A stretch of 63,410 nt of DNA, the filler included, from an uncultured Methanosarcinales archaeon (GTDB taxonomy: Archaea; Nanobdellota; Nanobdellia; Woesearchaeales; JACPBV01), in the NCBI GenBank assembly GCA_964492935.1. It is 4 parts of 4 records of this genome, joined end to end, with 100 filler letters (N's around TTAATTAATTAA, not from the genome) between each part and the next. Parts side by side here need not be neighbours in the genome. Positions count along the whole stretch, not along the records: positions 1 to 19,179 come from CAZBLF010000024.1; 3 more parts are not named here. One strand, given 5' to 3'. Shown piece after piece: positions 1 through 45,850 of the stretch. Every line of letters begins with the position of its first letter. Position 1 is the first letter of the stretch. Below the pieces are notes generated by a model, which saw only the letters and a program-made list of their open reading frames with translations, was not told where the DNA came from and searched no databases. The position numbers and the translations under genes are program-made.

Positions 1-2
1 AG

Positions 3-74
3 CATGAGATTTCTCTTGATGCTCATGTGATGAAGAAGGCGCGACGCGCACTCGATAGGATGATGGAGATTTAG
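3..74 (+). CDS. nadA: 3' end of a probable quinolinate synthase (truncated by window edge)
   Basis: Manual translation HEISLDAHVMKKARRALDRMMEI* resembles the NadA C-terminus (ARxAL(D/E)RM). Confidence 0.6.
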   Translation, partial: HEISLDAHVMKKARRALDRMMEI

Positions 75-116
75 TGAAGAGAAATATTTATATAGGCTTC
101 TTCTTAGAATGAGTAT

Positions 117-918
117 ATGAATATTAGAGTGTTCTTAGTGGTCTTGATTTCTGCTTTTCTTGCAGGTTGTTCCGGTTTGAGTACAAGTGGTCAGGCTTCG
201 TTTGGAGCGGTGGCAGAAGATGGATTGGCAGCACATTATTCGTTTGACGAGGGTACCGATGTTACATCTGATGTTTCTGGTAATGGATTTGATGCATCGT
301 GTTCAGGGAGTAACTGTCCGGGGGTTTATTCCTGATGGAAAAATTGGCGGCGCGTTTCACTATGATGGGGTGGATGATCACTGGAATGTTCAGGGGCAGG
401 TGCTTGTGGGTAATCAGTGGACGATCGCTAGCTGGATTAGGCCTGAGGATTTTGGAGGGAATTCGATGGGTCTTGGTATCTATCATCAGGGTCCTAGTTT
501 AGGTACTAATTTTTTGGTGTATTTTGGTGGAGCTGGCTATCCTGGAGAGACTATTGGTGGGCGTACGAACCAGGGCACCTTTCTTACGTCTCCCGGAGGA
601 GATCTTACGCTCAACACATGGCAGCACGTCGCTATGGTCAATAATGGCGGTATGGTTACTTGGTATCGGGATGGTAATGCGATTGGCAATTCGACACAGG
701 GCAGTCCTGGCAATGCGGATACGGCAACTGTTTCGTATATCGGTTCTTGGTATAATTTAGCTCCCGGTAGATCGTTTAAAGGTGATATTGACGAATTGGT
801 TATTTTTAATCGGTTATTGAGTCCGGAAGAGATCCAGGGATTGTTTACTGCTGCTCCGCTTTCAATGGAACAGCGAGTAGATCAGTTGATTCAGGCAATT
901 GCTCCAGAATTAGTCTAA
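117..918 (+). pseudogene. LamG/concanavalin-like domain lipoprotein, frameshifted at the G5 run 320-324
   Basis: ORF 117-335 has a lipobox (LAGC) and the LamG start (HYSFDEG..DVSGNG). The second frame continues DGKIGGAFHYDGVDD...WQHVA..WYRDG..FKGDIDE. Removing one G joins them. Confidence 0.75.
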
Positions 919-941
919 TTTCTAATTTGTAATGTGTTTTA

Positions 942-1457
942 CTATACTTTTTCTTTCCTTCTCTTTCCTTCGTATGTCTTAATGTCTACTATATCCTTGA
1001 GCAAATTTTGATGTTCTCTTTCTGCCATTTTCTTTTTTACGAGTTGAGCAATTTCGAAGCGTTTGCGTAAATTTGCTGCAATTTGAATGGCTTTATTCCG
1101 GTACTCCAATATTTTCTGGCGACTTTCAAATTTTTCGGTAGATTGTTCGAGCAAGTTTCTAATCCTCTTTAACTCACTTTCAACCTTACTTCTTTCCTTT
1201 TCCTTTTCCTTACTCGTGGACGCGTCTTTCTCAATTGCTATTTCCGCGTTGAGTTGATTGATTAGATTTAGTAATTCAGTAGTCTTGAGTGAGGCTGCAT
1301 TGTGTCCATTAAGCAGTTTTGACAACTCTTTAGCGGATTGTAGTACTATGAGATACCAACTACACAGCTTCTCCGTGTCGTTAAATTGGGGTGAGAGATT
1401 CGTAACACTCTCTTGTGTTTCGTCTATTTTTTGATATAGTGATTTCTTAGTTGCCAT
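942..1457 (-). CDS. Coiled-coil hypothetical protein (paralog of 1447-1941)
   Basis: K/E/Q-rich helical ORF; likely start at ATG 1457 (MATKKSLYQKIDE). Confidence 0.6.
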   Translation of the reverse strand: MATKKSLYQKIDETQESVTNLSPQFNDTEKLCSWYLIVLQSAKELSKLLNGHNAASLKTTELLNLINQLNAEIAIEKDASTSKEKEKERSKVESELKRIRNLLEQSTEKFESRQKILEYRNKAIQIAANLRKRFEIAQLVKKKMAEREHQNLLKDIVDIKTYEGKRRKEKV

Positions 1458-1941
1458 GATGCGCCAAAGAAAGCTCACTTATAGTGGCTTCTAGCCTCTC
1501 TTGCTCCTGAATTTCGTCTTTTCTCCTTTTTCCCTGGAGTCTTTCTATTTTTTCCATTATCTTATCAAACTGCTTCTGAAGACGATCACCGTATTGAGAT
1601 AATTTCAATTCAGATTCGAAGCTCGATTCTAGTTCTTCAAACTTCCTCGATGCTACGATCCGGCTGGCTTCTCTTTTTTGTAGCTCTTCACTATCCATGT
1701 TAGGAGATGACTCTTTTCCTTTGCTCAATTCTCTTTTGGCGTTTTCCATTTTTAATTGAGCACTTCCAATGGACCTCATTTTTTGTCCCAAGTCTGTTAA
1801 TTGACTTACTAGTGTAGTTGAGTGTAGAATTAATTGCTCTTCTGACTTTTCCTCTCTTGCTATTTTTGTTGCAAGGGCGATAACGTCATCCAACTCTTGG
1901 TAGAATCCTTTTTTTCTTCTAAAAATACTGAAGATGTCCAT
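1447..1941 (-). CDS. Coiled-coil hypothetical protein
   Basis: 164 aa K/E-rich helical ORF with a TATA-like TTAAATAA upstream on the minus strand. Confidence 0.65.
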   Translation of the reverse strand: MDIFSIFRRKKGFYQELDDVIALATKIAREEKSEEQLILHSTTLVSQLTDLGQKMRSIGSAQLKMENAKRELSKGKESSPNMDSEELQKREASRIVASRKFEELESSFESELKLSQYGDRLQKQFDKIMEKIERLQGKRRKDEIQEQERLEATISELSLAHHGN

Positions 1942-2011
1942 AATCTTGAATTGCGATTTTGGATTATTTAAGCTTTTCTATGCTGTTTCTTCTGGTTGTG
2001 ATGGGAAAGAA

Positions 2012-2980
2012 TTAATCTATTCGAGTAACGGAAAATCCATCCTGAGGCAAGCGATGGGTAAACCCTGTTTCAGAGATCAGATGATTAAGTCCAACGGCAA
2101 TGAGTTTGTCTCCTTGTTTTAGGTCGTCAAGCACTTTAGGATACCATAGGTTGTTTCTTCCATCGCAGATAGCATCGTTAAACATGCGCATGTCTTCATC
2201 TAACTCTGCAAATGCGTCCTTGAAATAATCAATGTCCCCTCGCCAATAGTCGGCTTCATCCATCTCGACAAGTCCCGTATTCCTATCTCCCGGATCTATT
2301 TGCCACCAGATAAGTTTTTTCCAGACTGATTCTGGTATAGAATCTTCAATCTCTACAGTTGATTGACCTTCATCTAGGCTACGGATCACTTTTTCTTGCG
2401 ATAAAGCATAGCTCATGAGTTGTAAATCGATAATATTGTCTTTTTCATTCTCGGTGGTTGCTGCATGGTTCATGATGTTGCCCATTGCAGCGTATTCAGT
2501 ACTTAGGGACTTAGGTATTGGACCACCAGAGTTTTTTATTATCTCTTTCTTCGTTGCTTCTTCGATTGCTGTTCTTCGGTCCGATGCAATTTGATGTTTG
2601 AAACCTAGGGGATCATTAACCAGCGATGAAATTTCATCGAACATAGACCAAGATTTTCGTGTATAAAAATTGGAAAGATATGATGCGATGATTTCTTCGG
2701 AAAAATCATCCTGCAGTTGTTGGCGAATATATGATTCAACTTTATTTCGCTCAGATCTGTTGAATAGAGTTGATCTCCCGTCTCTTAGTCGACGGTACTC
2801 GGCTCTTTTTGGGAGTGTAAAATCACTACCTTTTTCAACATAGACTGTTTTCGAGGCATCGATAAGCTGATGTAGGGCAGATAATTTATCGGGCTCGGAT
2901 GGATAGTGCATGGTACCGATTAGATAAGAAACATTTCCTTGATACTCTGCTTTCCAGGCAAAGGGGAGGTCTTTAGCCAT
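2012..2980 (-). CDS. TraB/GumN (TIKI-like) family protein
   Basis: Motifs SYLIGTMH, RNxxW and IAVGLNHL. Confidence 0.8.
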   Translation of the reverse strand: MAKDLPFAWKAEYQGNVSYLIGTMHYPSEPDKLSALHQLIDASKTVYVEKGSDFTLPKRAEYRRLRDGRSTLFNRSERNKVESYIRQQLQDDFSEEIIASYLSNFYTRKSWSMFDEISSLVNDPLGFKHQIASDRRTAIEEATKKEIIKNSGGPIPKSLSTEYAAMGNIMNHAATTENEKDNIIDLQLMSYALSQEKVIRSLDEGQSTVEIEDSIPESVWKKLIWWQIDPGDRNTGLVEMDEADYWRGDIDYFKDAFAELDEDMRMFNDAICDGRNNLWYPKVLDDLKQGDKLIAVGLNHLISETGFTHRLPQDGFSVTRID

Positions 2981-3042
2981 AAGAATTGATTTTCAAACTT
3001 CCTTTATAAGACTTTCTGTAATTAACCACTAATAAGTAATAA

Positions 3043-4098
3043 CTAATCTAACTTCTTCTGTCCTGCGTATTCTACTATCGAATCTTGCATGACTTCTAAT
3101 AGGATGCCAGCTTCTTCTAGCATTTCACGGCTTTCTTGGGCTGCATGGTATTTCATCTCGCAGACTACTCTTTTTATTCCGGCTGAGATTAGTAATTTGG
3201 TGCAATCGAGGCAGGGTTCCATTTTACAGTATAGGGTTGCGGAATGAATGTCTACTCCTGAATTTGCGGCCTGCGCTATGGCGTTTGCTTCGGCGTGAAT
3301 GGTACGAATGCAGTGTTGGGTGACTGAACCATCCTCATGAATAGTTTGCTTAAACCAGTGCCCTACGTCATCACAGTGGGCCATTCCGGGTGGTGATCCT
3401 ACGTAACCGGTGGTCATGATTCTTTTGTTCTTTACAATGATGCATCCTGCACGCCCGCGATTGCAGGTTCCTCGCGTGCCTACCGTTTTTGCTAGCTCTA
3501 GGAAGTATTCATCCCACGGCGGACGGTGATGTGCGGCTGCCTCGTGGATTTTCGGATAGGTTTCGTCGATGAGTTTGTGGAATGCCTCGATGGTGGAATC
3601 GTTCTGGATTGAGAATTGCGACATATCGATACATTTCTGGATTTGTTGTCCGGAATCGTTGTCTGAAACCATTTCCTTTTGTTCTGCTTCCTGGAATAAT
3701 TCAAAGGTTTCGGGTTCAGATTCTTTTCGGCCGCGCGCTGACATTCGTTCGAAGCGCATTTCTGGTGGTGCTAAGATTGCTGCAAGGGTAAAGTTTTTGG
3801 CTTGGCCGAGTTCTTTGATTTCTAATGGATTGCGAATTGAGGAGATGATGTAGTTTTTATCATCATCCATTACTTCTAATGCTCTTCTTGCAAGCGCATT
3901 ATTTCCTTCGGTTTCTCTTAATTTTGTACCTTCACGTTGTAAATTTTCTCTGGTGATGGGGATGTCTTGCTTTTTTAGGACTTCTCTAAGCATATCAGAA
4001 AGAGAAAGATGGATGAAGTTGTGCTTTTCGATGAGATAATTAGCAAAGGTGTCTTTGCCGGAGCAGAAGGTGCCGGTTACTCCTATTTTTATGGGCAT
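3043..4098 (-). CDS. P-loop kinase (dephospho-CoA/NMP-kinase-like) fused to dCMP deaminase
   Basis: N-terminal GVTGTFCSGKDT; C-terminal WDEYF, HAEANAI and PCLDC zinc deaminase motifs. Confidence 0.85.
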   Translation of the reverse strand: MPIKIGVTGTFCSGKDTFANYLIEKHNFIHLSLSDMLREVLKKQDIPITRENLQREGTKLRETEGNNALARRALEVMDDDKNYIISSIRNPLEIKELGQAKNFTLAAILAPPEMRFERMSARGRKESEPETFELFQEAEQKEMVSDNDSGQQIQKCIDMSQFSIQNDSTIEAFHKLIDETYPKIHEAAAHHRPPWDEYFLELAKTVGTRGTCNRGRAGCIIVKNKRIMTTGYVGSPPGMAHCDDVGHWFKQTIHEDGSVTQHCIRTIHAEANAIAQAANSGVDIHSATLYCKMEPCLDCTKLLISAGIKRVVCEMKYHAAQESREMLEEAGILLEVMQDSIVEYAGQKKLD

Positions 4099-4147
4099 GT
4101 ATGTGGTAGGCGTTGTTCGTTTATATGGATTGTTATGTTGTAGTCCC

Positions 4148-5143
4148 TTAATCCCAATCTAAATTACCGGCGGTCTGGTACTCGGTTACGCGGGTTTCGA
4201 AGAAGTTCTTTTCTTTGGATAGGTCGGTTGATTGGGACATCCAAGGGAAAGGGTTTTCTTTTCCGTAGACTACGGGGAGATCGATTCTTAATAACCTGCG
4301 ATCGGCGATGTGTTCGACGTAGTCGCAGAATTGTTGGGCGTTTATGCCTAGTAATCCTTGAGGGCACGCATCGTGGGCGTACTTTTTCTCTAGTTCTACT
4401 GCTTTTTTGATTAAAGCGACAATTTCGTCCTGGAATTCTTTGGTCCAGATTTCTGGGTTTTCTTTCTTGATGGTGTTGATGAGGTCGCAACCAAAAGCTA
4501 GGTGGAGAGATTCATCACGCATGATATATTCGAACTGCTCTCCGATGCCAACCATTTTGTTTTGACGTTTGAGTGCGAGCATCATTGCGAATCCTGCGTA
4601 AAAGAAGATTCCTTCCATGATGACATAGTAGCCGATGAGATCGTGGATAAACTTTCTAATTTCATCAATCCCGGTGGTCTCAAAGGTGGGTTCGAAGATA
4701 GATTTAGTTAATTCTACAACGAAGTCGTCCTTTTCTTTGATGGAGGGGACGGTATTGTACATGGTGTAGATTTCTTCTGGATCTAGTCCTAATGTATCAC
4801 AACAGTAGATGAAGGTGTCGGTGTGAATAGCTTCTTCATAGGCTTGTCGCAGCAAATATTGCCTGCATTCTGGGTTGGTGACGTGTCGATAGACGGCTAG
4901 AACTATGTTATTAGCGGTTAGAGATTCTGCGGTTGAGAAGAAGCCGAGATTCCAGAGAATCATTCTACGTTCGGTATCGTTGATAACATTGGGAGATTTC
5001 CATTGTTCGACATCTTTCTGCATGGAGACTTCTTCAGGCGTCCAATTGTTTGCAACGCCATCTTTATAGTGTTGGCGCGCCCACATGTAGGTCATAGGAA
5101 GAATCTTGTTTGGATCGGTGGATGAGTTGTTTATAATTACCAT
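4148..5143 (-). CDS. nrdB: Ribonucleotide reductase small subunit, class Ic (R2c) signature
   Basis: FFSTAES, EEAIHTDTF, EGIFFY, RDESLH, KNFFETRVTEYQ. Confidence 0.93.
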   Translation of the reverse strand: MVIINNSSTDPNKILPMTYMWARQHYKDGVANNWTPEEVSMQKDVEQWKSPNVINDTERRMILWNLGFFSTAESLTANNIVLAVYRHVTNPECRQYLLRQAYEEAIHTDTFIYCCDTLGLDPEEIYTMYNTVPSIKEKDDFVVELTKSIFEPTFETTGIDEIRKFIHDLIGYYVIMEGIFFYAGFAMMLALKRQNKMVGIGEQFEYIMRDESLHLAFGCDLINTIKKENPEIWTKEFQDEIVALIKKAVELEKKYAHDACPQGLLGINAQQFCDYVEHIADRRLLRIDLPVVYGKENPFPWMSQSTDLSKEKNFFETRVTEYQTAGNLDWD

Positions 5144-5211
5144 TCGACTTGTTAACGCTTATTGTTTTTTATGCTTTTATATTCTGGAATATAGGGTAAT
5201 CGTATAGAGAA

Positions 5212-8070
5212 TCACTGACAGGCTTCACAGTCCGGATCCATGATGCTGCAGACGTTCGATGATGAGACCTCGGTTGCGGGTGGCGCAGGGTTTTGTGGCA
5301 TTTCATTGGGTGCTGCACCATTGAGGTGTCCATTTTGTAGCTCTGGAGTTGTTTCGGGAGGTGCGGCAGCTCCGTTTTGCTCCTGGTATTCTCGCTTTTG
5401 CGTGAAACCGAACTTTTGTGCGTCTAGCGTTGATTTCTCTATTTGAGAGGCTGCTAGTGAACGGAGATAGTACGTCGTCTTTAATCCCGCTTTCCAGGCA
5501 TGGATGTAGGTCTCGCTTAGTTTTGAGCCGGAGGTGCCTTTCATGAACACGTTATGTGATTGCGATTGGTCGATCCATTTGGTACGGACTGCGGTCATGT
5601 CGATACAGTGTAGTGCATCTATTTCGAAGGCTTCCTGGTATTTGTCTTTGAGCGTTTGTGGTATGCTTGGGATTAGATTTACATTTCCATCATAGTACTT
5701 GAGCTGTTCAAGCATTTCCTCATTCCAGAGCTCTGCTTTCTTAAGGTCTTCAATGAGATAACTGTTTACTACGGTGAATTCCCCGGAAATATTTGCTTTT
5801 ACATACATATTTTTGTAGATGGGTTCGATGCAAGGGAAACAGCCAGAGATATTTGCGATGGTCGCGGTAGGGGCGATGGCCATGGTGTTGCTATTGCGCA
5901 TTCCGTGTTGTTTGATGTGGTCACGTACCGGTGCCCAGTCAAGACGTGCGTCTCTGTTCACTTCGATTTTCATGCCGCGCTCTTCCTCTAGAAGGTCTAT
6001 GGTATCTACAGGGAGTAGATTGCGGTCCCATTTTGAGCCTTTGAAGGATTCGTAGGCTCCTCGTTCCTTCGCAAGGGTTGTTGATCCTAGAATTGCATTA
6101 TAGGAGACCTTTTCCATGGTTCTATCTGCAAATTCTACTGCAGCCTTTGAGGCGAAGGGGATGTCTAATTTGAAGAGTGCGTCTTGGAATCCCATTACTC
6201 CTAATCCTACTGGTCGGTGTTTCATGTTGCTGTTTTTAGCTTCATCCGTAGGATAGAAGTTGAGGTCGATGACGTTATCGAGCATGCGCATGGCTGTCTT
6301 AATAGTTTTTGATAATAATTCATCATCTAGTTTTCCTTCGTGAACGTGGATGCCAAGATTGACGCTTCCTAGATTGCAGACTGCGGTTTCGGTCTCCGAG
6401 GTGTTTAGGGTGATTTCGGTACAGAGATTGCTACTGTGGACTACTCCGACATGATCTTGTGGTGATCTGATATTGCAGGGATCCTTGAACGTAATCCAGG
6501 GATGGCCGGTTTCGAACAGACGTGAAATCATCTTTCTCCACATTTTCTTTGCGGGGATGGTTTTGTGCTTGCGCATCTGACCATTTTCTGCTTTTTGTTC
6601 GTATTCGATGTATTTTTTCTCGAAGGCACGTCCATATAACTGATGGAGTTCGGGAACTTCGTCTGGTGAAAATAAGGTCCAATTTTCTTCATTGATGATA
6701 CGCTTCATGAAGAGATCGGGAATCCAGTTTGCGGTGTTCATGTCGTGAGTTCTTCTTCTATCATCACCGGTGTTTCTTCTGAGGTCAAGAAAATCTTCGA
6801 TGTCAAGATGCCAGGTTTCGAGGTAGGCGCACGTCGCTCCACGTCGTTTACCAGACCTATTGATGGCCATGGTGACGTCGTTTGCAATTTTAAGGAAGGG
6901 AATGACGCCTTGTGATTCTACATTTGTTGATCCAATCCAGGAGCCGGTACCGCGAATGCTGCTCCAATCGTTACCGAGACCGCCGGACCACTTTGATAAT
7001 TGGGCATTGTCGCCTAGACATTTGAAAATGTGGGAGAGATCGTCTTTTACGGTGGTTAGATAACAGGAACTTAATTGTGGGTGTGTTAGGCCTGCGTGGA
7101 AGAGAGTTGGTGTCGAATTTACGAACTTTAGTGAAGAAAGGACGTCGTAAAATTCTAGCGCTCTCTTTTCTTTATCGGGTTCATTCAGTGAAAGCCCCAT
7201 GGCTACACGCATCCAGAAGGATTGAGGTAGTTCGAGACGTTTTTCCTGCGTTTTGATGAAGTAGCGTTCATAGAGTGTTTGGATGCCGATGTACTTGAAC
7301 ACGAGATCTCGCTCGATTTTGAGTCCATAGGAGAGTTTTTCAAGGTCGAAGTCCAACATTTTTGGATTGAGTAGGTTTTCTTCTACTGCCTCTTTGATTG
7401 ACTTTACAAATGCGTCGCGATAGCCGAATGCGAAGGTTTCTTCCTCAACGGATTCGCCGATTACTTCTTTATAGAGGTCCTGGAGGAACATGTGTGCAGA
7501 AAGATAATCGTAGTCGGGATCTTTTTCGATATAGGAGATGGTTGCTAGGACTAGTGCTTTGCCGATTTCCTCAGTGGTGATTCCGTCAAAGATGTTTTTG
7601 AGGAGCTCTTTTTGGATGAGTTCTGGTTGGATGCCGGGTAGGTTGCTGGCGAGGCGTTCAATGGTGCCTCCTATTTTTTTTGCATCGAATAATACGGCGG
7701 TACCATCTCGTTTTTTTACGGTTAATCTGCCCATGCGCGCTTTTTCTACGTTTTGGTCGCGTTCTACAGATCTAGCGTCTTGGCGTTTTGCTCGATAGAG
7801 GATGTATTCCTTTGCAATTTCGTAGTGGCCTGACTTTACGAGATGTTTTTCTACAACATCCTGGATATTTTCAACATTGGGGAAGAAATCTACGAAGCGT
7901 TGTTCAATTTCTTGCTTGACATCGTCGATGATGGATTCGAATTCAGCTTGCTGTATTTCTTTTCCGGCTGCTTTTACTGCTTTTTTTACTGCATTTTCTA
8001 CTTTGATGGGGTCGAAAGGGACTACCTCTCCATTTCTCTTCGTTATCATTAAGTGTACTGCTTCTGCCAT
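5212..8070 (-). CDS. nrdA: Ribonucleotide reductase class I large subunit with two ATP cones
   Basis: Two KRxG..FD ATP cones, SSCYL, SNLCTEI, KTTYY and C-terminal CEAC. Confidence 0.95.
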   Translation of the reverse strand: MAEAVHLMITKRNGEVVPFDPIKVENAVKKAVKAAGKEIQQAEFESIIDDVKQEIEQRFVDFFPNVENIQDVVEKHLVKSGHYEIAKEYILYRAKRQDARSVERDQNVEKARMGRLTVKKRDGTAVLFDAKKIGGTIERLASNLPGIQPELIQKELLKNIFDGITTEEIGKALVLATISYIEKDPDYDYLSAHMFLQDLYKEVIGESVEEETFAFGYRDAFVKSIKEAVEENLLNPKMLDFDLEKLSYGLKIERDLVFKYIGIQTLYERYFIKTQEKRLELPQSFWMRVAMGLSLNEPDKEKRALEFYDVLSSLKFVNSTPTLFHAGLTHPQLSSCYLTTVKDDLSHIFKCLGDNAQLSKWSGGLGNDWSSIRGTGSWIGSTNVESQGVIPFLKIANDVTMAINRSGKRRGATCAYLETWHLDIEDFLDLRRNTGDDRRRTHDMNTANWIPDLFMKRIINEENWTLFSPDEVPELHQLYGRAFEKKYIEYEQKAENGQMRKHKTIPAKKMWRKMISRLFETGHPWITFKDPCNIRSPQDHVGVVHSSNLCTEITLNTSETETAVCNLGSVNLGIHVHEGKLDDELLSKTIKTAMRMLDNVIDLNFYPTDEAKNSNMKHRPVGLGVMGFQDALFKLDIPFASKAAVEFADRTMEKVSYNAILGSTTLAKERGAYESFKGSKWDRNLLPVDTIDLLEEERGMKIEVNRDARLDWAPVRDHIKQHGMRNSNTMAIAPTATIANISGCFPCIEPIYKNMYVKANISGEFTVVNSYLIEDLKKAELWNEEMLEQLKYYDGNVNLIPSIPQTLKDKYQEAFEIDALHCIDMTAVRTKWIDQSQSHNVFMKGTSGSKLSETYIHAWKAGLKTTYYLRSLAASQIEKSTLDAQKFGFTQKREYQEQNGAAAPPETTPELQNGHLNGAAPNEMPQNPAPPATEVSSSNVCSIMDPDCEACQ

Positions 8071-8073
8071 TCG

Positions 8074-8529
8074 TTATTTCACCTTCGCTACTGCTTGTAT
8101 TTCTTTTTCAAAAGATCGTAAATGTCTGAAATCTCGATATACTGATGCAAACCGGATATATGCTACTTTGTCGAGGTGTAAGAGTTTTTCCATTGCGATT
8201 TGGCCGACTAGGGTGCTTTCAATCTCGTTAGAATCTTGCTTTCTCAGTTCAGCTTCGATTTCATGCATGAGGTCGTTGATTTTTTCGATGCTGATTGGTC
8301 TTTTCTCGCAGGCTCTGATGATTCCTCGTCGTATTTTGTTGGAGTCAAACGGATCTCTTGAGCCATCTTTCTTGATGATGAAGAGCTCTAGATCTTCGAC
8401 TTGTTCGTAGGTGGTGAAGCGTTTGCTGCACTTGCTGCATTCCCGTCTGCGCTTTGTTACCATGTCATTGGGAGTTTCTCTTTTATCGGTGACGCGGTGT
8501 TCGGTGCTTGAGCAGTAGGGGCATTTCAT
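8074..8529 (-). CDS. nrdR: Transcriptional repressor NrdR
   Basis: MKCPYC..RRRECxxCxxRFTTYE zinc ribbon, ATP cone, AYIRFASVYRDF. Confidence 0.95.
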   Translation of the reverse strand: MKCPYCSSTEHRVTDKRETPNDMVTKRRRECSKCSKRFTTYEQVEDLELFIIKKDGSRDPFDSNKIRRGIIRACEKRPISIEKINDLMHEIEAELRKQDSNEIESTLVGQIAMEKLLHLDKVAYIRFASVYRDFRHLRSFEKEIQAVAKVK

Positions 8530-8535
8530 CGTTTT

Positions 8536-8582
8536 TCACAATATGTTGTGTTCTTTTTGAATTTTACTACAATATATGGGTT
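8536..8582. promoter_or_regulatory. Tandem NrdR boxes, pair 1
   Basis: CACAATATGTTGTG (8537-8550) and TACAATATATGGGT (8568-8581) start 31 bp apart and match the acaCWAtATaTWGtg consensus; they lie directly upstream of nrdR. Confidence 0.8.
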
Positions 8583-8623
8583 TATTATAATTTATAAGCA
8601 TTTTTTTGAAATATGGCTTAGAA

Positions 8624-8670
8624 ACACCGTATCTTGTGTTTTTTTTAAATTCTTAATCAACATATGGTAC
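8624..8670. promoter_or_regulatory. Second, weaker pair of NrdR-like boxes
   Basis: CACCGTATCTTGTG (8625-8638) and ATCAACATATGGTA (8656-8669), again 31 bp apart. Confidence 0.55.
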
Positions 8671-8931
8671 TGATTTCCGAGAATCTTGTATATAAAGATT
8701 GTTATAGTGTAATATATGGATTAAAAGATATAGGTTGTTAACTCTATTCTGTTGTTGTAGAGAAAACAATGGTTTTTCGACTGTAATCAGGTATTTTCAT
8801 ATCTCTGGAGTGAAGACTGTGATTCCTCATAGGGTGGTGATGTCATTCTATATATTCGGTTCTTTGTTTCTTACAAACTTTATTTTTTCATCAAGGAAAA
8901 AGTATTTAAGTGTCTGGAAGAGCTGTTGTAT

Positions 8932-10185
8932 ATGATTGCGAAACTGCAGGAAAGACTCCAGGGAAAGACGAAAGAGGTACGGGAGTGGCTTTCGAGAGAG
9001 AGAGATTCGCTTAAGAAGCAAGGTTATCTTCTGCCTATTTATTCTTCCTTTGATGTGCGGGATGCAGGGTTTAAGGCTGCATCCATCGATGCAAACTGTT
9101 ATCCTTCCGGCTTTAACAATATTGGAGGGGTAGCAAAAGGGAAGGCTATCCAGGCTTTTAAGCAGTATATTGGCAAGCTGTATCGTGGCAAATCCCTTCT
9201 CTTGATTAGCGAACCATCAACACGTAATGCGTTCTATGTAAGTCATATTTGTGCATTGAAAACTTTGCTTACGAAGGCAGGGTTTCAGGTGACGGTCGGC
9301 ACTTTTTGGGAGGGTAGCGATGCTGCTCGCGAGGTTGAGGATGCAGGCGGCCATATGCTCTCAATTGAAAAAATTACTCGAAGTGGAGATACACTTAGGA
9401 CTCAGTCATTTTCTGATGGTTTTTTACTCTTAAACCATCCTTTTTTGACTGCTGATGATCCGGTGTTAATTGGGTTAGACCAGCCTCTTTATCCCTCTGC
9501 AGCGATTGGATGGGCTTTTCGAAAGAAGAGTGATCATTATCGGCTCTATGACACTCTTGTGGACTCTTTTGCAAAGCATATTGGTATTGACCCCTGGCTC
9601 TTGAAGACCGAATGGGATGTGGTGAGTGGGATCGATTACAGGAGTAATGATTCTTTGCAGCGCATTGCCGATGCTACTGATGCTTTGCTTAAACGCATCA
9701 CTCTACGTTACAAGAAGGCAGGTATCACTCAACAGAAGCCGTATGTTTTTATCAAGTCTAACTCTGGTGCTGAAGGGCGAAGTGTGTATTCCGTCTCTAG
9801 TGGAAAGGAGGTTCTTAACTTGAATAGCAGTACCCGAAGAAAATTGCGTTTTGGTAAATATCAATGGCCGGTTGAGGAAGTTGTTCTACAGGAAGGCCTT
9901 CAGACGATTTACAAGGTTGCATGTTTGCCTGCTGAACCCGTAGTGTATTGTGCAGGGGGCAAGGTTGTAGGGGGTTTTATGCGAGTTCATTCGAAGCAGG
10001 ATGATAAATCTAATCTGAATGTCCCCGGAATGCAGTTTAGTGGATTGTTGGAGAATAGTATAACAAAACCGCTCTTGGATCATGTTACTGATCAATCAGA
10101 TCTTTCGGTGTACGGGATTTTGGCAGCTATAGGGAATATAGCGATTGTTCAGGAGACCATTGCGATGGAACAGCAGTCTTCTTAA
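8932..10185 (+). CDS. gshA: Glutamate-cysteine ligase, GshA (Acidithiobacillus ferrooxidans-like, ATP-grasp-related type)
   Basis: PIYSSFDVRDAGFK..IDANCYPSGFNN, W..RKKS.H, PYVFIK, AEPVVY..VVGGF.R.H..NLN.PG. Confidence 0.8.
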   Translation: MIAKLQERLQGKTKEVREWLSRERDSLKKQGYLLPIYSSFDVRDAGFKAASIDANCYPSGFNNIGGVAKGKAIQAFKQYIGKLYRGKSLLLISEPSTRNAFYVSHICALKTLLTKAGFQVTVGTFWEGSDAAREVEDAGGHMLSIEKITRSGDTLRTQSFSDGFLLLNHPFLTADDPVLIGLDQPLYPSAAIGWAFRKKSDHYRLYDTLVDSFAKHIGIDPWLLKTEWDVVSGIDYRSNDSLQRIADATDALLKRITLRYKKAGITQQKPYVFIKSNSGAEGRSVYSVSSGKEVLNLNSSTRRKLRFGKYQWPVEEVVLQEGLQTIYKVACLPAEPVVYCAGGKVVGGFMRVHSKQDDKSNLNVPGMQFSGLLENSITKPLLDHVTDQSDLSVYGILAAIGNIAIVQETIAMEQQSS

Positions 10186-10263
10186 ATACAACCTTTCGAA
10201 CCTAGTTATTCAAATTCCGTAAGCTTTATAATCCAGGAGTTTTTGCTTATTTATGGGATTTCA

Positions 10264-11028
10264 ATGAGAACGATATCAGTTTTTTCTATCAAGGGCGGCG
10301 TAGGTAAAACTACAACTGCGGTTAATTTGGCTTCAGGACTTGCTCGAGCTGAAAAGAAGGTGTTGTTGATTGACTTAGACCCGCAGGGAAGTGTGGATCT
10401 GTCGTTACGGGTGAAGCCGGACTATACTATTTATGATTCGATGATGGACGAGCAGCCATTGCAGCAATGTATTGTTAATTTGGGTAAGAATTTGGATGTG
10501 ATTGCTGCTAAAGAGAGTTTATTGCAGGTTGAGCAGATTTTGGCTCAGAATATGGACGGCGATACTGCTTTGACCGATCGTATGAAGAAATTGACGGGAT
10601 ATGACTTTATTATTTTGGATTTGGCTCCTGCTTTGACGTTATTGACGAAGAATGCTTTGGCGTTTGCACAGGAGTTGGTGGTTCCGGTATCGACTGATTT
10701 CCTCGGTATTGAGACGTTGAAGAAGATGGAATCGGTCGTTAATTCGATTAATAATGAATATGGCCATAAATTGAAGATTACGAAGATTGTTCCTACGCTT
10801 TACGATAAAAGAAGTAATATTTGTAAGGATACTTTAGCTGAATTGCAGAATTTGTATTATGAGCGGGTGACGTATCCGATTCATTATACTGCCAAGGTTA
10901 AAGAGGCTCCTAAATTTGGTAAATCTATTTTTGCTCATGCGAAGGGGAGTAAGGGTGCCAAGGACTATGAGCGGTTGGTAGAAGATGTTATTGCGATGAA
11001 AGTTGCTCCGTTGGTTGCTCGGAAGTAG
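10264..11028 (+). CDS. ParA/Soj family ATPase
   Basis: Deviant Walker A KGGVGKTT, LIDLDPQG, EAP..GK. Confidence 0.9.
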   Translation: MRTISVFSIKGGVGKTTTAVNLASGLARAEKKVLLIDLDPQGSVDLSLRVKPDYTIYDSMMDEQPLQQCIVNLGKNLDVIAAKESLLQVEQILAQNMDGDTALTDRMKKLTGYDFIILDLAPALTLLTKNALAFAQELVVPVSTDFLGIETLKKMESVVNSINNEYGHKLKITKIVPTLYDKRSNICKDTLAELQNLYYERVTYPIHYTAKVKEAPKFGKSIFAHAKGSKGAKDYERLVEDVIAMKVAPLVARK

Positions 11029-11029
11029 T

Positions 11030-12178
11030 TTAGGCTGGGATTTTGGAGAGTTCTTTTGGAGGTTGTGATGTTTCTGGTTCTACTCCAATGGCTTTCATAA
11101 ATTCGGCGGGACTTTGCATCCAGAGGTCATACGCTCTTTGGACTCCATGTGTTTTTATCCATGGTACGCTCTTTGTTTTAACATGCTGGTATTTACTTCT
11201 TCTATCATATAGTGCATACGTTTCATCGGTTAACTCATGCATATTTCTGATGCCTAGTTTGACGCCTAACTCAGCTGCCAGTACTACTGATAACCCTTCT
11301 GAGAAAGTCTCTATTGCTGTAGTATAATCATATCCTGCCCCCACGAGCTCGAGGTAATTGTCTTCGAAGTCTTCCCCCATCCTGTGAGGAATAATTTCTG
11401 AGAATGGGGTGTGGATCAGAAATTGTGAAGCACCGAGTATCATGTTGCCGATTAGCGGTTTATGCGTCTTTGGATCATACTTAGTGAGATTTGCCCCCCC
11501 CGTGTCTTCCCGTACTCCAAATGCGCTAGCATTTGCATATACTGCTTCGTTCATTATCACCTCTAACGAAAATATGCCGTAGAATCCATCAACAACAAAG
11601 ATGTTGTCCTTTTTACGCGATTGGTATTTGCCATTTCTTGTGACTGGGATTATCGATAGGTCGGAATCGGGTAGTCCCTGGATTTTGCTATATAGAAACT
11701 CAATGGCTTGATCGATGTATTTTAGAGATTCGTCTTTCACCTTTGAAGAAAGGGGTAAGCCTCTATAGGATAGATACTTCCTGATTTCGTAGTCTTGTTC
11801 ACTGAACCCTGATTGAATCATGTGTTCTGTTACAACCTGATGCATTGTGCTTAATGGGTTATTCTCCTCTGCATTCATTCTCTGGAACGGGATAGAAGGA
11901 CCTAATAGGGGATACCTTTTTTCTGCATCCTCAGTTTGTAGATTTTCTATAAAATCGGCTTGGTGTGTCAGAAATGGCCATGGGTCGGGGGTCTTTGGCA
12001 TTAGCCAATATGCTAGCCCTCCTGCAGTGAGTAGGGATCCCGTTGCTGATAGTTTAAGGAATCTTCTTCGACTGGGACTTTCTTCTCGTTGAGGTACTTC
12101 ACTTGTTGATGGTTCTTGCAGAGGGACACTAGGAGCTTTCTCTCTCTTTCTTGGTTTTCTTCGTGTTTTTTTGCTCAT
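11030..12178 (-). CDS. Hypothetical membrane-anchored protein with twin-arginine-like motif
   Basis: Basic N-terminus, then SRRRFLKL followed by a hydrophobic helix. Confidence 0.65.
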   Translation of the reverse strand: MSKKTRRKPRKREKAPSVPLQEPSTSEVPQREESPSRRRFLKLSATGSLLTAGGLAYWLMPKTPDPWPFLTHQADFIENLQTEDAEKRYPLLGPSIPFQRMNAEENNPLSTMHQVVTEHMIQSGFSEQDYEIRKYLSYRGLPLSSKVKDESLKYIDQAIEFLYSKIQGLPDSDLSIIPVTRNGKYQSRKKDNIFVVDGFYGIFSLEVIMNEAVYANASAFGVREDTGGANLTKYDPKTHKPLIGNMILGASQFLIHTPFSEIIPHRMGEDFEDNYLELVGAGYDYTTAIETFSEGLSVVLAAELGVKLGIRNMHELTDETYALYDRRSKYQHVKTKSVPWIKTHGVQRAYDLWMQSPAEFMKAIGVEPETSQPPKELSKIPA

Positions 12179-12320
12179 TTTTGTCTTGGGACTTTCTGTA
12201 TCTGGTTCTGCTTTTGACTTTATAAATGTATGTTTATTTGCTACTGGAGAATGGTTAATGAGTAAGTTTTTGCTTTATCACAAACTATATAAAGTTCCTT
12301 TCTCGTAATTTAGTTTTATC

Positions 12321-13481
12321 ATGGTCAAATTTAAGGATTTTTTTGAGAAGATTTCTCCTAAGAAAGTACTTGCACAAATAAGCCCGATTTTAATTAATCC
12401 TACTTCGTCTGGGATACAGATTAATTTGTCTCGGAGATTCTTGATTTTTCAGTTGTTGGAGAAATTGACTCGTCGGATTGAGGACGATCCGTATCTGAAT
12501 TTCGTTAGTATTCTGAAGAATTATAAGGTGTTGGGAAGCATTATTACTGGGAATTTGCACGAGTTGCATCGGGATCGTAATACCTTGTATTTTAAGAATT
12601 TCTTTATCGATCGAGACTTGTACAAGATGGTGAAGCAGGATTTGGAATGGGTGTACAATAATTATGAGGAGTTGCGTGAGTCGTTGAAGTTGACGGTTAC
12701 TAAACGAGGAATTATTGTGTATGATAACCATCAGCAGAACCAGTTTAATGTGTTGTTGTTGACGATTCACTCTGGGACGTGGATTCGTCGAGATATTGAG
12801 GATAAGCTTGCTATTACGCGTGAAAAGCGGTTGTTGGATGAGGATATTGATACGCACAAGATTTATGGTCCTCTGGTTTTGGATAAAGGCGGGATTTGGA
12901 TAGACAATAAGGCTTCGCGTTTTGCTTGTGACTATAACAGAGGTCCGGATAGAAGAATTTATGCTAACAAGTCTGAACGGTGGATTAAACAGGTGTGGAA
13001 GGAGGAATTATCGATTGCGCAGCGGAATTGGTTGATAGAGGGATATGAGGAATTTTATTTTACGTTGGATAAGTTGATTGATGCGTATAAGTTTAACATT
13101 ATCTTTGATGGTCACTCGATGAAGGATGCTAAAGGTAGACCTCAAATGAGTTTTGGTACGAAATATATTCCTCCTTTTTACATGCCGGTTGTTCGTTCGA
13201 TGCAGCGGAAGTTGAATAATCTTGGATATAATCCTGTTTCGTTGAATGTTCCTTATTCAGGCGGATTTATTTTGCAGTGGTTATCGCAGAAATATCCTGC
13301 TGCCTTTACACTTTCGATGGAGGTTAACAAGTTGCTTTATATGACGAAGAACCGTAAGAGGACTAAGGTAACGCTTTTGGAGAAGATGTCCTCTAACATC
13401 TCTGCGATTTTCGATATTGATGATGAGGATGCGTTACAATCTGGATTTAAGTTGAATTTGAAAAGTACTTCTAAGATATAG
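12321..13481 (+). CDS. N-formylglutamate amidohydrolase-like zinc hydrolase with N-terminal extension
   Basis: TIHSG, DEDIDT, SRFACDYNR, IFDGHSM, NVPYSGG, MEVNK. Confidence 0.8.
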   Translation: MVKFKDFFEKISPKKVLAQISPILINPTSSGIQINLSRRFLIFQLLEKLTRRIEDDPYLNFVSILKNYKVLGSIITGNLHELHRDRNTLYFKNFFIDRDLYKMVKQDLEWVYNNYEELRESLKLTVTKRGIIVYDNHQQNQFNVLLLTIHSGTWIRRDIEDKLAITREKRLLDEDIDTHKIYGPLVLDKGGIWIDNKASRFACDYNRGPDRRIYANKSERWIKQVWKEELSIAQRNWLIEGYEEFYFTLDKLIDAYKFNIIFDGHSMKDAKGRPQMSFGTKYIPPFYMPVVRSMQRKLNNLGYNPVSLNVPYSGGFILQWLSQKYPAAFTLSMEVNKLLYMTKNRKRTKVTLLEKMSSNISAIFDIDDEDALQSGFKLNLKSTSKI

Positions 13482-13575
13482 GAGACATAAGAATTGGTGC
13501 TCGGTTGAACATTTCAGATTTGATTTATCTCCTCTATTAATAGTTTTCCATCGTCATAATACTTAAGTACGGGTA

Positions 13576-14481
13576 ATGAGTAGGGGAGGTATGTTTTCTG
13601 AAAAGAACCCTTTGATGCTTGTGGGTGTTGGAGGGGTTGCTGATATGTTGATCGATGTTCATCGGAAGGAACATTTAGCCAGCGGCGAACTACCCTTATT
13701 TCTTGTGGATAAAAATGAGATGAGCCGTCATCCGGATTATCCTTCAAGTGTTGTTGATATACTTGCCCCAGGAATTGAGATTCATAGTGAGAATTCTGAT
13801 TGGGAGCCTAATGAGCAGTCTCCCTTAGTAGATCTGTTACGAAAGGTGGATCCTGGAGGCATCATTTTCTATCCTTTTGCTCCGGTGGGCGATGAAAGTG
13901 TACGTTTGGATGAATATGGTAATGTTCATCCGGTGTACTACCATGAACATGCTACAGATTGGTATAATAGATCGTTACAACAGAACCCTCTTCTTACCTA
14001 TCAGATGCTCGAGGCGGTGAAGTATGTCTATGATACACAGAATGAGGGCGAGCGCAAAGACCTTCACTTTATGCAGGTGAGTTCTGGATCTTTTCATCAG
14101 GCTGGGCCGTATGCTCTCTCAAAAAGAGAACAGGTTGCGTTGACAGAGGGTGCATGCTATAGATACCATCGTGATCATCCGAATTTACATATTTTTGGGA
14201 AAGTTGTTGAGTATTGGAGACCCTTGCCTGTAGTCGAGTGGGATAAACTAGAGAGTGCGGGGAAAGGGCAGACTCAGTTTACTCATGCTGATGATGTGGG
14301 GAGATTTACGTTGGCTTTTATGAAGGGGAGCAATGAGCTTGTGTATGATGAGAATGATCCCCATGTTGCTTTTGCGACTTATGCTCTTACAGCAAATGAT
14401 CCTTCGCTTCCTTTCTTTTCTAGAGTAGGTAAGGAAAAGTTTGGTGCACCCAACCATAGGTTTACACGATATGAAGTGTAG
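13576..14481 (+). CDS. Divergent SDR/NAD-dependent epimerase-like protein
   Basis: Gly-rich VGVGGVA, QVSSG, YxxxK (PYALSK), FTHADDV. Confidence 0.5.
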   Translation: MSRGGMFSEKNPLMLVGVGGVADMLIDVHRKEHLASGELPLFLVDKNEMSRHPDYPSSVVDILAPGIEIHSENSDWEPNEQSPLVDLLRKVDPGGIIFYPFAPVGDESVRLDEYGNVHPVYYHEHATDWYNRSLQQNPLLTYQMLEAVKYVYDTQNEGERKDLHFMQVSSGSFHQAGPYALSKREQVALTEGACYRYHRDHPNLHIFGKVVEYWRPLPVVEWDKLESAGKGQTQFTHADDVGRFTLAFMKGSNELVYDENDPHVAFATYALTANDPSLPFFSRVGKEKFGAPNHRFTRYEV

Positions 14482-14515
14482 GAACTCTTAAAAGGAGTGA
14501 GTACTTTTTGTAGGT

Positions 14516-14767
14516 ATGGCCACTTTAAATTCACTTTCTAATGATGTTGAGGCTATTAAAAAGCGTAATTTACAGGTTGAGAAGGATAAGGCGTGGGAGA
14601 CTTCTTTTGCTCGTAAAGGTGTTGTCTTTGGGCTGACGTATGTTTTTATTGTGGTGTTTATGTTGGTGAATGGATTGCCTAAGCCGTATGTGAATTCTTT
14701 GATTCCTGCATTAGCTTTTGTGCTTTCTACGTTAACTTTGAGTTGGGCGAAGAAGTTTTATTCTTAG
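14516..14767 (+). CDS. Small membrane protein
   Basis: 83 aa with two hydrophobic segments. Confidence 0.65.
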   Translation: MATLNSLSNDVEAIKKRNLQVEKDKAWETSFARKGVVFGLTYVFIVVFMLVNGLPKPYVNSLIPALAFVLSTLTLSWAKKFYS

Positions 14768-15519
14768 TATCTTACTTTCCAACCGATCTTCATGAGGTAT
14801 ACTACTACTGCTACGGTTGTTGCGGTTAGGATGAAGGTGACTGCCATTCCGATTCCTAAGGGGCCGTCAGTTACTCCTAATAAGCCATATCTGAAGCCAT
14901 CTACGAAATAGAAGACGGGGTTTAGGAGTGTTATTTTCTGGAACCAAATGGGGAGATCTTTGATGCTGTAGAAGACGCCGCCTAACATGGTTAGGGGTGT
15001 TAGAAAGAAGGTGGTGACTACACCGAGATGTTCGAAGGTTTCTGCTTTTAATGCAAGGATGATACCGATTGAGCCGAAGAGCATGCAGGCTAGGATGAAG
15101 TAGTAGAGGAGTGCCCAGAGATGTGCTACTGAGGGGACTACAAAGAGCAGTGTTACTAGGAAAATTCCGATTGATACTAGAAGACTTCTTAGGGTTGCGC
15201 CTACGAGATAGGCTGAGACGAGTTCTAGGTAGCTTGTGGGAGTGGTTAAGATTAATTGAATCTGTTTGGTCCACTTTGACAGGAATAATGAAAATGAGGT
15301 CGAGGTGAATGATGAATTGATGACGGCCATCATGATTAATCCAGGAACGAGGAATTCTGTGAAGGGAGCTCCGATGGTTGATTTGTCTTTAAGCACGAAA
15401 TTGAAGATGGTTAGGAAGAGAAGTGATGAAATGATTGGAGGAAAGAGTGATTGGGAAAGGGTGGTGTACAATCTATAGAGTTCGCGTTTTACTATATATG
15501 CAAAGCTGGTTCTACTCAT
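14764..15519 (-). CDS. ABC-2 type transporter permease
   Basis: FLVPGLIMM, PLTMLGGVFY, NPVFYFVDGFRY; about six TM helices. Confidence 0.9.
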   Translation of the reverse strand: MSRTSFAYIVKRELYRLYTTLSQSLFPPIISSLLFLTIFNFVLKDKSTIGAPFTEFLVPGLIMMAVINSSFTSTSFSLFLSKWTKQIQLILTTPTSYLELVSAYLVGATLRSLLVSIGIFLVTLLFVVPSVAHLWALLYYFILACMLFGSIGIILALKAETFEHLGVVTTFFLTPLTMLGGVFYSIKDLPIWFQKITLLNPVFYFVDGFRYGLLGVTDGPLGIGMAVTFILTATTVAVVVYLMKIGWKVRY

Positions 15520-16420: not shown

Positions 16421-16465
16421 TCGTTTAGAAATCTGGAGGTTGGTTTTAAAGGTTGTTGTTGAGGA

Positions 16466-17788: not shown

Positions 17789-17863
17789 GGGTTGATGGAT
17801 GTGTGTCTTTTTTTAAAGGTTACTTAGAAAAGCTTTATATATCTGGATTCTGAATATGCTGTT

Positions 17864-38947: not shown

Positions 38948-38996
38948 CTCAATGATTAGGTAAACCTTTAATAATTCTTACTTGTTCTTTATTTAT

Positions 38997-45762: not shown

Positions 45763-45821
45763 TTCTCTACCTGAACATACTCTTCTGTTTGTAGCTCGGT
45801 TTTACTTCGTAAAGCGATACC

Positions 45822-45850
45822 TTTATAACTATAGTCATAATTATAGTATT
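45822..45850 (+). promoter_or_regulatory. vapBC TATA box with overlapping operator-like repeats
   Basis: TTTATAA overlapped by ATAACTATAGTCAT and ATAATTATAGTATT (12 nt period, near-palindromic). Confidence 0.5.

Follow-up and report, generated by a model that had tools for sequence, protein, structure and literature searches.

Introduction

In Chlamydia trachomatis, the class Ic ribonucleotide reductase (RNR) genes are given as nrdR, nrdA and nrdB (Lundin 2010), and ancestral Chlamydiae are inferred to have combined class Ic with class III (PMC9816063). According to PMC4118035, the chlamydial R2 subunit (R2c) is told apart from the R2-like ligand-binding oxidase (R2lox) by the relay tyrosine Y222 together with F197; the same paper notes that Mn/Fe binding in vivo had yet to be demonstrated for any R2c and that Fe/Fe forms are readily produced. 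The NrdAz/NrdBz sequence clade includes both Pseudomonas aeruginosa and Chlamydia, often with several ATP cones (PMC9669993); in P. aeruginosa NrdAz, nucleotide is bound by the outer cone only (PMC5794259). Class Ic is already known in archaea, from haloarchaea with the same nrdR-nrdA-nrdB operon (PMC3019208). The repressor NrdR is reported from 22% of archaeal genomes (PMC13584703), and we saw no experimental study of it in archaea. Our literature searches found no paper on class I RNR, class Ic included, in DPANN. The locus described here is a new member of a known RNR subclass in an unreported host lineage, most likely within the Woesearchaeota, which PMC8421398 describes as mainly anaerobic fermenters.

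Results

The window, that is, the whole stretch of DNA analysed (63,410 nucleotides, filler included), consists of four joined contigs, and the RNR genes lie on the first one (window positions 1–19179; Table 1). Both nrdA and nrdB are intact open reading frames, separated by 68 bp. The span of 4148..8070 given in the first-pass annotation holds for these two genes but leaves out nrdR and the operator region. The kinase/dCMP deaminase-like fusion gene is likely co-transcribed with nrdB, and it occupies the same position behind nrdB in two further genomes (G001 and G217).

Table 1. Features of the class Ic-type RNR locus (window coordinates)
Feature	Position	Strand	Basis
P-loop kinase fused to dCMP deaminase-like domain	3043..4098	minus	49 bp behind nrdB
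nrdB, class Ic-type R2 (NrdBz), 331 aa	4148..5143	minus	ORF, family model, alignments
Phe111 codon of nrdB, radical-tyrosine position (E. coli Tyr122)	4811..4813	minus	alignment
Glu73 codon of nrdB, first metal ligand (E. coli Asp84)	4925..4927	minus	alignment
nrdA, NrdAz-type R1, 952 aa	5212..8070	minus	family model, 5IM3 match
nrdA ATP cone 2, about residues 116–203, limits approximate	7462..7725	minus	Pfam; single-cone R1s align from residue 115–118
nrdA ATP cone 1, residues 8–97	7780..8049	minus	Pfam
nrdR repressor (Zn ribbon + ATP cone), heading the operon	8074..8529	minus	TIGR00244, Pfam
Proximal predicted NrdR-box pair (8536–8551 + 8567–8582), 31 bp period	8536..8582	minus	box scoring
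TATA-like element, predicted promoter, just upstream of proximal box pair	8591..8598	minus	pattern match only
Distal predicted NrdR-box pair (8624–8639 + 8655–8670), 31 bp period	8624..8670	minus	box scoring
TATA-like element, predicted promoter, just upstream of distal box pair	8689..8696	minus	pattern match only

The motifs FFSTAES and EEAIHTDTF, on which a class Ic assignment of R2 had initially been based, are both present in the nrdB product. Alignment to Chlamydia-type and E. coli NrdB bore that assignment out in every sequence feature tested: E73, the first metal ligand, aligns with E. coli D84 and with the Glu of FFSTAES in PDB 1SYY, while F111 and H107 correspond to Y122 and H118 of E. 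coli K-12 NrdB (mature numbering), such that the radical position holds Phe and no Tyr. The variant structure 2ANI has a Tyr in exactly the F111 column. All six metal ligands are kept in the alignment (E73, E104, H107, E177, E211 and H214), as are the radical-transfer residues W34 and C-terminal Y322, and Y206 and F181 are the counterparts of R2c Y222 and F197. The Glu/Phe pair occurs in 80 of 80 relative loci compared, with Asp/Tyr relatives at 53% identity to this R2 (L125–L128) as the contrast set. The Y206 relay is not universal, since nine Glu/Phe relatives in the alignment carry Phe there.

The best PDB matches of R2 were 1SYY, 4D8F/4M1I and 2ANI; we take 1SYY and 4M1I to be C. trachomatis R2c. 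The alignment to 1SYY runs end to end (residues 3–330) and scores 471 bits, whereas E. coli R2 reaches 67 bits. Both subunits scored above the cut-offs of their family models, NF005550 (R2, 555 bits; cut-off 309) and NF005544 (R1, 1332 bits; cut-off 965), and the best solved relatives were 1SYY and 5IM3, which places the pair in the NrdAz/NrdBz clade, a name taken from PMC9669993. A class Ia R2, with an Asp ligand and a radical Tyr, is ruled out by the Glu/Phe residues; a class Id R2 would retain the Tyr that is Phe here, and 6CWO–6CWQ gave only 35–38 bits. By its residues R2 is class Ic-type, and it is predicted to use an oxygen-activated Mn/Fe centre.

In R1, Pfam gives two ATP-cone stretches, as the first-pass annotation had proposed. 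The best solved relative, 5IM3, matched at 1038 bits. The key residues are C336, N548, C550, E552, C565, Y867, Y868 and the C-terminal pair C948/C951, and all nine E. coli R1 catalytic positions are conserved in this nrdA, the sole class I/II alpha subunit gene found in the host genome.

The nrdR product scored 183 bits against TIGR00244 (cut-off 124.65). NrdR boxes were scored against a consensus, with the six conserved positions in PMC13584703 (C4, A6, A8, T9, T11 and G13) as a check; three of the four boxes keep all six and the fourth keeps five. The best-scoring box of the whole genome lies in the proximal pair, and of only three pairs genome-wide at a score of at least 8, two are upstream of this operon. 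The two pairs are 88 bp apart, a layout shared by a same-genus genome. Furthermore, a pair scoring at least 7.5 was found upstream of 19 of the 20 class Ic loci from this order, compared with 3 of 2526 genome windows. The locus thus has the layout of an NrdR regulon, an nrdR gene with paired predicted boxes 31–32 bp apart at an RNR promoter.

The host is a marine DPANN archaeon and most likely belongs to the Woesearchaeales. Its archaeal nature shows in PolD, MCM, TBP, proteasome PAN and FEN-1, all encoded on the contig that follows in this genome, and the DPANN-like host assumed at the outset is supported. The genome is 84.8% complete with 0.13% contamination, and the RNR contig resembles the rest of it in tetranucleotide composition (r = 0.978). 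The same operon and neighbours occur in the same-genus genome at 90–97% identity, and contigs from other runs span the dcd-nrdB, nrdB-nrdA and nrdA-nrdR-gshA junctions. Metagenomes from 17 studies, of marine, seawater and vent origin, contain the locus DNA, and no RNA dataset was listed among them. Elsewhere, the genome encodes class III NrdD/NrdG; it also has SOD, two peroxiredoxin-family genes, a glutaredoxin, MsrAB and GshA. Neither a heme-copper oxidase nor cytochrome bd was found in the 84.8% complete genome; NrdD was not found in the same-genus genome (80% complete).

Across the order, class Ic was present in 21 of 351 genomes (about 6%). NrdD accompanied it in 17 of these 21 carriers and a full NrdJ in one; order-wide, NrdD was found in 136/351 genomes and NrdJ over cut-off in 214/351. 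A monomeric class II RNR was not detected over cut-off in the five genomes searched. In three genomes (G064, G167 and G278; 97–99% complete), class Ic was the only RNR found. SOD was present in 23 of 23 class Ic carriers checked, compared with 87 of 201 order genomes. The carrier counts come from related, non-independent genomes, so these co-occurrences overstate significance.

Could the host, then, be an archaeon that meets oxygen, as the oxygen requirement of class I enzymes had suggested from the start? The SOD distribution and the seawater and marine DNA indirectly favour exposure. Because SOD occurs in every carrier checked and class Ic is the sole RNR in three near-complete genomes, it is likely that the host and other class Ic carriers meet oxygen, a supported inference. 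The class III RNR of the host, together with the negative search for terminal oxidases, points to aerotolerance rather than aerobic respiration.

Horizontal transfer from bacteria had also been proposed. Bacteria are the likely ultimate source of the nrdAB cassette, but the direct donor may have been another DPANN archaeon, and our trees do not single out a donor, a direction or a number of transfers. The joined alignment was analysed under LG+G4, with Chlamydiae outside the sample and bootstrap support unsettled. In none of the 200 bootstrap trees did the DPANN rows group together; the AU test did not reject a single DPANN clade (p = 0.64 for the quick tree and p = 0.19 for the careful tree). 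The trees suggest several independent bacteria-to-DPANN transfers, a reading left tentative by the AU result. Composition did not single out a recent transfer: nrdAB had a tetranucleotide r of 0.837, between the 5th and 25th percentiles of 300 random 3.9-kb windows. Its GC3 was 0.48–0.52, versus 0.40–0.45 in four housekeeping genes. Searches for a viral carrier gave a best phage-collection match of 51% and, among five viral contigs, 70–71% at best; plasmid matches above 60% were all haloarchaeal (10 records), and no close vector was found. The cassette now stands behind nrdR, a gene common in the order (over cut-off in 266/351 genomes).

Discussion

Taken together, the intact nrdR-nrdA-nrdB operon with its class Ic-signature R2 very probably supplies a Woesearchaeales-type archaeon with dNTPs, independently of vitamin B12, when oxygen is present. 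By analogy with C. trachomatis R2c (mechanism after PMC8463856, PMC4118035 and PMC5794259), O2 or H2O2 would oxidise Mn(II)/Fe(II) to Mn(IV)/Fe(IV), which an electron passing via Y206/W34 would turn into Mn(IV)/Fe(III). This centre, in place of a tyrosyl radical, would then oxidise C550 of R1 via W34, Y322, Y868 and Y867. As in P. aeruginosa, dATP would inactivate the enzyme by way of the outer ATP cone, and it would shut the genes off through NrdR on the predicted boxes, which overlap predicted transcription starts. In anoxia, the task would pass to the class III NrdD/NrdG encoded elsewhere in the genome.

An R2 with the class Ic signature could nevertheless carry another cofactor in this organism, such as Fe/Fe. 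PMC4118035 and PMC8463856 note that Mn/Fe, Fe/Fe and Mn/Mn sites share the first coordination shell and that R2c is easily mismetallated, and a crude motif scan of the host genome found no Nramp-like gene. The end-to-end R2c match with counterparts of F197, W51 and Y222 retained, and the high activity that R2c shows only with the mixed cofactor (PMC4118035), make this quite improbable. In its active form, Mn(IV)/Fe(III), the centre is EPR-silent (PMC4118035), so a missing EPR radical alone would be no proof of the cofactor. R2lox, which is no RNR subunit, shares the Glu/Phe pair and a Mn/Fe site; we rejected it on residues and scores, and its probability is close to nil. R2lox would have Ala in place of F197 (PMC4118035), a ligand channel and no R1 partner, whereas here F181 and Y322 are kept, an intact nrdA adjoins, and R2lox models give only 32–59 bits, far below their cut-offs.

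The origin of the contig and the lifestyle of the host also allow other readings. A case for bacterial contamination, or for a chimera, in the archaeal bin could be made from the bacterial type of nrdA, nrdB and nrdR, from Babelota at 84% identity among the nearest relatives and from the lack of a ribosomal marker on the contig. This reading is largely refuted, and extremely improbable, given the low contamination, the fitting composition, the synteny, the recurrence of the operon across the order and the junctions spanned in other runs; the contig's GlmM also fits the archaeal model better (290 vs 143 bits, both under cut-off). A strict anaerobe, in which class III does the work and class Ic either depends on sporadic H2O2 for its activation or is carried along with little use, would be in keeping with the NrdD gene, the terminal oxidase result and the mainly fermentative lineage, and H2O2 can activate R2c (PMC8463856). 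We consider it unlikely: the operon is intact and tied to nrdR and predicted boxes, and the SOD counts, the seawater DNA and the genomes with class Ic alone argue for the oxygen-linked enzyme proposed above.

More tentatively, and in our view less likely than not, class Ic RNR might mark an oxygen-exposed guild in Woesearchaeales and Micrarchaeota that gave up the B12 enzyme in favour of a Mn/Fe enzyme activated by O2. Some members, relying on class Ic alone, would be unable to replicate DNA without oxygen or peroxide; others would toggle to class III via an FAD-type PAS redox sensor. DPANN might even be more than recipients, serving as a reservoir that exchanged the cassette with other bacteria and with the Babelota, which parasitise protists. 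The value of the enzyme lies in its use as a likely marker of a Woesearchaeota subset living with oxygen and avoiding B12; closely related to a well-studied class, it brings no new chemistry, and it offers an R2c from a non-pathogen for cofactor studies.

Comparison with known systems

With C. trachomatis R2c, this R2 shares the Glu first ligand, the Phe radical site, all ligands and the counterparts of W51, F197, Y222 and Y338. The host here is a DPANN archaeon, however, the cofactor is predicted, and R1 has two ATP cones compared with three in Chlamydia (PMC9669993). P. aeruginosa NrdAz (5IM3) likewise has two tandem cones, but it works with a class Ia R2 (PMC9669993); a KRDG start, absent in 5IM3, is retained by the inner cone of this R1, and nucleotide binding by that cone is putative. 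In Babelota (Dependentiae), R2 is 74–85% identical in most of the 47 of 61 genomes with NrdAB, an uncharacterised enzyme whose R1 mostly has one cone. None of the bacterial class Ic loci examined has nrdR within it.

The haloarchaea (Halogeometricum borinquense, Natrialba, Halorhabdus and Halobacterium) share an archaeal host, the nrdR-nrdA-nrdB order, the Tyr-to-Phe change and an inferred bacterial origin (PMC3019208), and their class Ic R2s are 62–69% identical to this one. Their R1 is without the first cone region (aligning from residue 124–155), and the hosts are aerobes, mostly with NrdJ too, in which class Ic matches were found on plasmids. Woesearchaeales carriers, on the other hand, mostly do without NrdJ and combine class Ic with NrdD. 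Finally, the locus resembles a bacterial NrdR regulon in its TIGR00244 match above cut-off and its 16-bp boxes at a 31 bp period, but the boxes here stand behind archaeal TATA-like elements and as two spaced pairs, which makes the locus a compact natural test of a bacterial-type repressor on an archaeal TATA promoter.

The operon and its host

We observed that the class Ic operon of this genome (G000; 1.15 Mb, 84.8% complete, 0.13% contamination) is real and intact, with gaps of 3, 68 and 49 bp between nrdR, nrdA, nrdB and a kinase/dCMP-deaminase fusion, in that order. Gene neighbourhood across the N-run joins of the window is meaningless. Could contig C24 have contaminated the bin? This is unlikely, given that its composition follows that of the genome (r = 0.978), that the operon and its neighbours are conserved in a same-genus genome, and that contigs of other sequencing runs span the dcd-nrdB, nrdB-nrdA and nrdA-nrdR-gshA junctions (of these runs, X9 and X10 seem to be a single data set and X2 is possibly the genome's source). 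The host is archaeal, with PolD, MCM, TBP, PAN and FEN-1 among the 33 later ORFs of the window scanned. Its order, which comprises at least 136 families, is probably Woesearchaeales. This DNA was present in 20 of 23 listed runs (17 studies), all marine, seawater, aquatic or hydrothermal-vent metagenomes; 7 of the 20 are possibly the genome's own source.

Features of the RNR locus and related genes (window positions unless a contig is named)
Feature	Position	Strand	Remark
Contig C24	1-19179		carries RNR locus
Kinase/dCMP-deaminase fusion	3043-4098	minus	
nrdB	4148-5143	minus	
nrdA	5212-8070	minus	
nrdR	8074-8529	minus	
Predicted NrdR-box pair	8536-8582		upstream of nrdR; 31 bp period
Predicted NrdR-box pair	8624-8670		upstream of nrdR; 31 bp period
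gshA	8926-10185		divergent from nrdR
N runs between C24, C25, C26, C45	19180-19279, 38454-38553, 57591-57690		
ispG, thyA, DHFR, msrAB	38982-40217, 44890-48103		contig C26
Class III nrdD + nrdG	contig C1		
Acyltransferase-like/nrdG ORF	G000:C1:53495-54949		473 aa
Split nrdD	G000:C1:55092-57283		L002, L003, L169
Putative HTH-PAS gene	G000:C1:57325-58299		L169; divergent from nrdD
Partial RNR-alpha-like ORF	by locus L135 (G126:C2:176982-177965)	opposite to nrdAB	L135; 400 aa

Class Ic residues and the predicted mechanism

The first-pass annotation had claimed a class Ic signature in R2 and two ATP cones in R1, and both were found. Alignment with E. coli K-12 NrdB, which it had proposed as a check, places Glu73 at the Asp84 position and Phe111, no Tyr, at the Tyr122 radical position. 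R2 scored 471 bits against C. trachomatis R2c (PDB 1SYY, residues 3-330) and 67 bits against E. coli R2; the remaining metal ligands (E104, H107, E177, E211, H214), W34 and the C-terminal Y322 are retained. Also retained are F181 and Y206, counterparts of C. trachomatis F197 and Y222, which distinguish R2c from R2lox (PMC4118035). R1 conserves all nine E. coli catalytic positions and is closest to P. aeruginosa NrdAz (PDB 5IM3) among PDB structures; multiple cones are typical of NrdAz, as is a class Ic R2 (PMC9669993).

While the residues themselves are observed, the whole mechanism, cofactor included, is proposed by homology. As in C. trachomatis R2c (PMC8463856, PMC4118035), Mn(II)/Fe(II) would react with O2 or H2O2 to give Mn(IV)/Fe(IV), which would be reduced through Y206/W34 to Mn(IV)/Fe(III) and so generate a thiyl radical on R1 C550. 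Electrons would come from C336/C565, re-reduced via C948/C951, possibly with glutaredoxin, and dATP would inhibit via the outer ATP cone, as in P. aeruginosa (PMC5794259). A proteobacterial-type glutamate-cysteine ligase (GshA), barely above the cut-off and kept in the same-genus genome, could with the glutaredoxin of contig C32 supply reductant. Bacterial-type IspG (MEP pathway), ThyA, DHFR and MsrAB are encoded on contig C26, in keeping with dTTP being made de novo and oxidative damage being repaired.

Predicted control by NrdR

The first-pass annotation had placed nrdA and nrdB correctly (4148-8070) but missed nrdR and the predicted NrdR boxes upstream of it. Scored against an NrdR consensus, both predicted pairs there are among only three genome-wide pairs scoring ≥8. 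A pair scoring ≥7.5 precedes the class Ic locus in 19 of 20 same-order loci; among comparison windows, 3 of 2526 from the genome and 1 of 72 AT-rich ones have such a pair. Three of the boxes hold all six conserved positions named in PMC13584703. A TATA-like element, by pattern, lies just ahead of each pair, so that bound NrdR would obstruct transcription from the predicted starts. The layout of two pairs spaced by 88-89 bp is seen again in several operons that begin with nrdR and belong to different families (L129, L141, L146, L048), which suggests that promoters lie in tandem or that NrdR forms a higher-order complex.

NrdR is above the cut-off in 266 of 351 order genomes, far commoner than class I carriers, and also lies ahead of nrdD in several genomes. 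The simplest reading is that nrdR was resident and nrdAB was later brought under its control; alternatively, nrdR may have come together with nrdAB, as in haloarchaea. At one locus (L142, G254:C12), NrdR and NrdD share a single 854-aa reading frame divergent from the class Ic operon.

Class III reductase and oxygen defence

G000 has one class I/II alpha only, beside its class III genes. SOD, two peroxiredoxin-family genes, glutaredoxin, MsrAB and GshA are present; searches for a heme-copper oxidase and for cytochrome bd found neither in the 84.8% complete genome. Its nrdD is in two pieces: the first ORF, of 686 aa, stops downstream of the Zn-site cysteines, and a second one, of 44 aa, encodes the glycyl-radical tail and has a start that overlaps that stop. 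As the split recurs in most other order-level loci fetched (fused in 4 of 24 distinct loci, picked largely from split-looking matches), it is not an assembly error. GrcA/YfiD is a spare part of pyruvate formate-lyase; by analogy, a detachable NrdD tail could permit repair after O2 cleavage. The nrdG activase appears to follow an acyltransferase-like domain (PlsC-looking by eye) in one ORF, perhaps as a genuine fusion, perhaps through loss of a stop.

Upstream of nrdD there is no NrdR box pair; the spacer to the HTH-PAS gene contains a short palindrome and no NrdR boxes. This gene (N-terminal putative HTH) has MmoS/Aer/NifL-type PAS domains, its closest solved relatives being 3EWK, Aer (8DIK) and NifL (2GJ3), which bind FAD. 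It is divergent from nrdD in 3 of the 24 loci, including G004 (L174) and G197 (L162). Judged from sequence, it is a candidate redox regulator of the anaerobic enzyme, and a redox switch between class Ic and class III is plausible.

Distribution and origin

An R2 family match was found in 37 of 351 order genomes. Residues were read at 30 loci; the other matches are five genomes Glu/Tyr-like by score, the G288 fragments and one weak sub-cut-off match. Glu/Phe occurs in 20 complete loci and Phe in one partial (21 genomes, G000 included; 6% of the order), Asp/Tyr at 6 and Glu/Tyr at 3. The Asp/Tyr class Ia R2s include L112-L116; the Glu/Tyr R2s (L118-L120; G361, G282, G226) lie in frames of 420-470 aa and look like class Id or like NrdB fused to a cone. 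At least three types of class I have entered the order.

NrdD occurs in 17 of the 21 carriers versus 136 of 351 order genomes, and a full NrdJ-level match in G280 only versus 214 of 351 above the cut-off, a count that may contain a few class I alphas. All 23 carriers checked, counting G001 and G004 with the 21, have Fe/Mn SOD, versus 87 of 201 order genomes; these co-occurrence counts carry no p-value, related genomes not being independent. Genomes flagged unpublished contribute at most 13 to the R2, NrdD, NrdR and NrdJ tallies and none to the 21 carriers or the trees. In G064, G167 and G278 (97-99% complete), class Ic was the sole RNR found by NrdD, NrdJ, RTPR and barrel-domain searches. The partial second alpha-like ORF of G126, just downstream of nrdAB, may be a class II gene that is split or decaying. 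A Micrarchaeota-titled phylum (11 of 121 genomes) and Babelota (47 of 61) have similar R2 genes, counted as gene matches of any residue type.

Did the genes come from bacteria, as first proposed? The patchy distribution favours transfer of nrdAB, as does the argument of Lundin 2010 that class I arose in bacteria, but the tree does not settle donor, direction or number of events. Among the best 80 of at least 584 matches, the nearest relatives (77-87%) are DPANN archaea, Babelota, Acidobacteriota, spirochaetes and Thermodesulfobacteriota. The joined NrdA+NrdB tree (74 rows: 34 DPANN-like, 36 of 63 bacterial loci, 3 haloarchaeal and 1 outgroup, without duplicates, partial genes or non-Ic types) has a backbone without resolution, with one starred archaeal-spirochaete and one starred archaeal-haloarchaeal group; a single DPANN clade was not rejected (AU test, p = 0.19).

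Comparison with known systems

Class Ic itself is well studied; this operon is a new member of it in a host lineage, DPANN, for which we found no report in a search of mainly openly accessible papers. Ribonucleotide reduction is absent from the main text of a Woesearchaeota genomics paper (PMC8421398) and DPANN from PMC9531940; the genes themselves are probably in RNRdb or GTDB-wide tables already. What deserves following up is the ecological reading, in which the carriers would be an oxygen-exposed DPANN subset. Haloarchaea listed in table 3 of PMC3019208, a type of operon that our searches also recovered, share with G000 the nrdR-nrdA-nrdB order and the Tyr-to-Phe change, and the pairing of class Ic with class III in G000 is the one inferred for ancestral Chlamydiae (PMC9816063).
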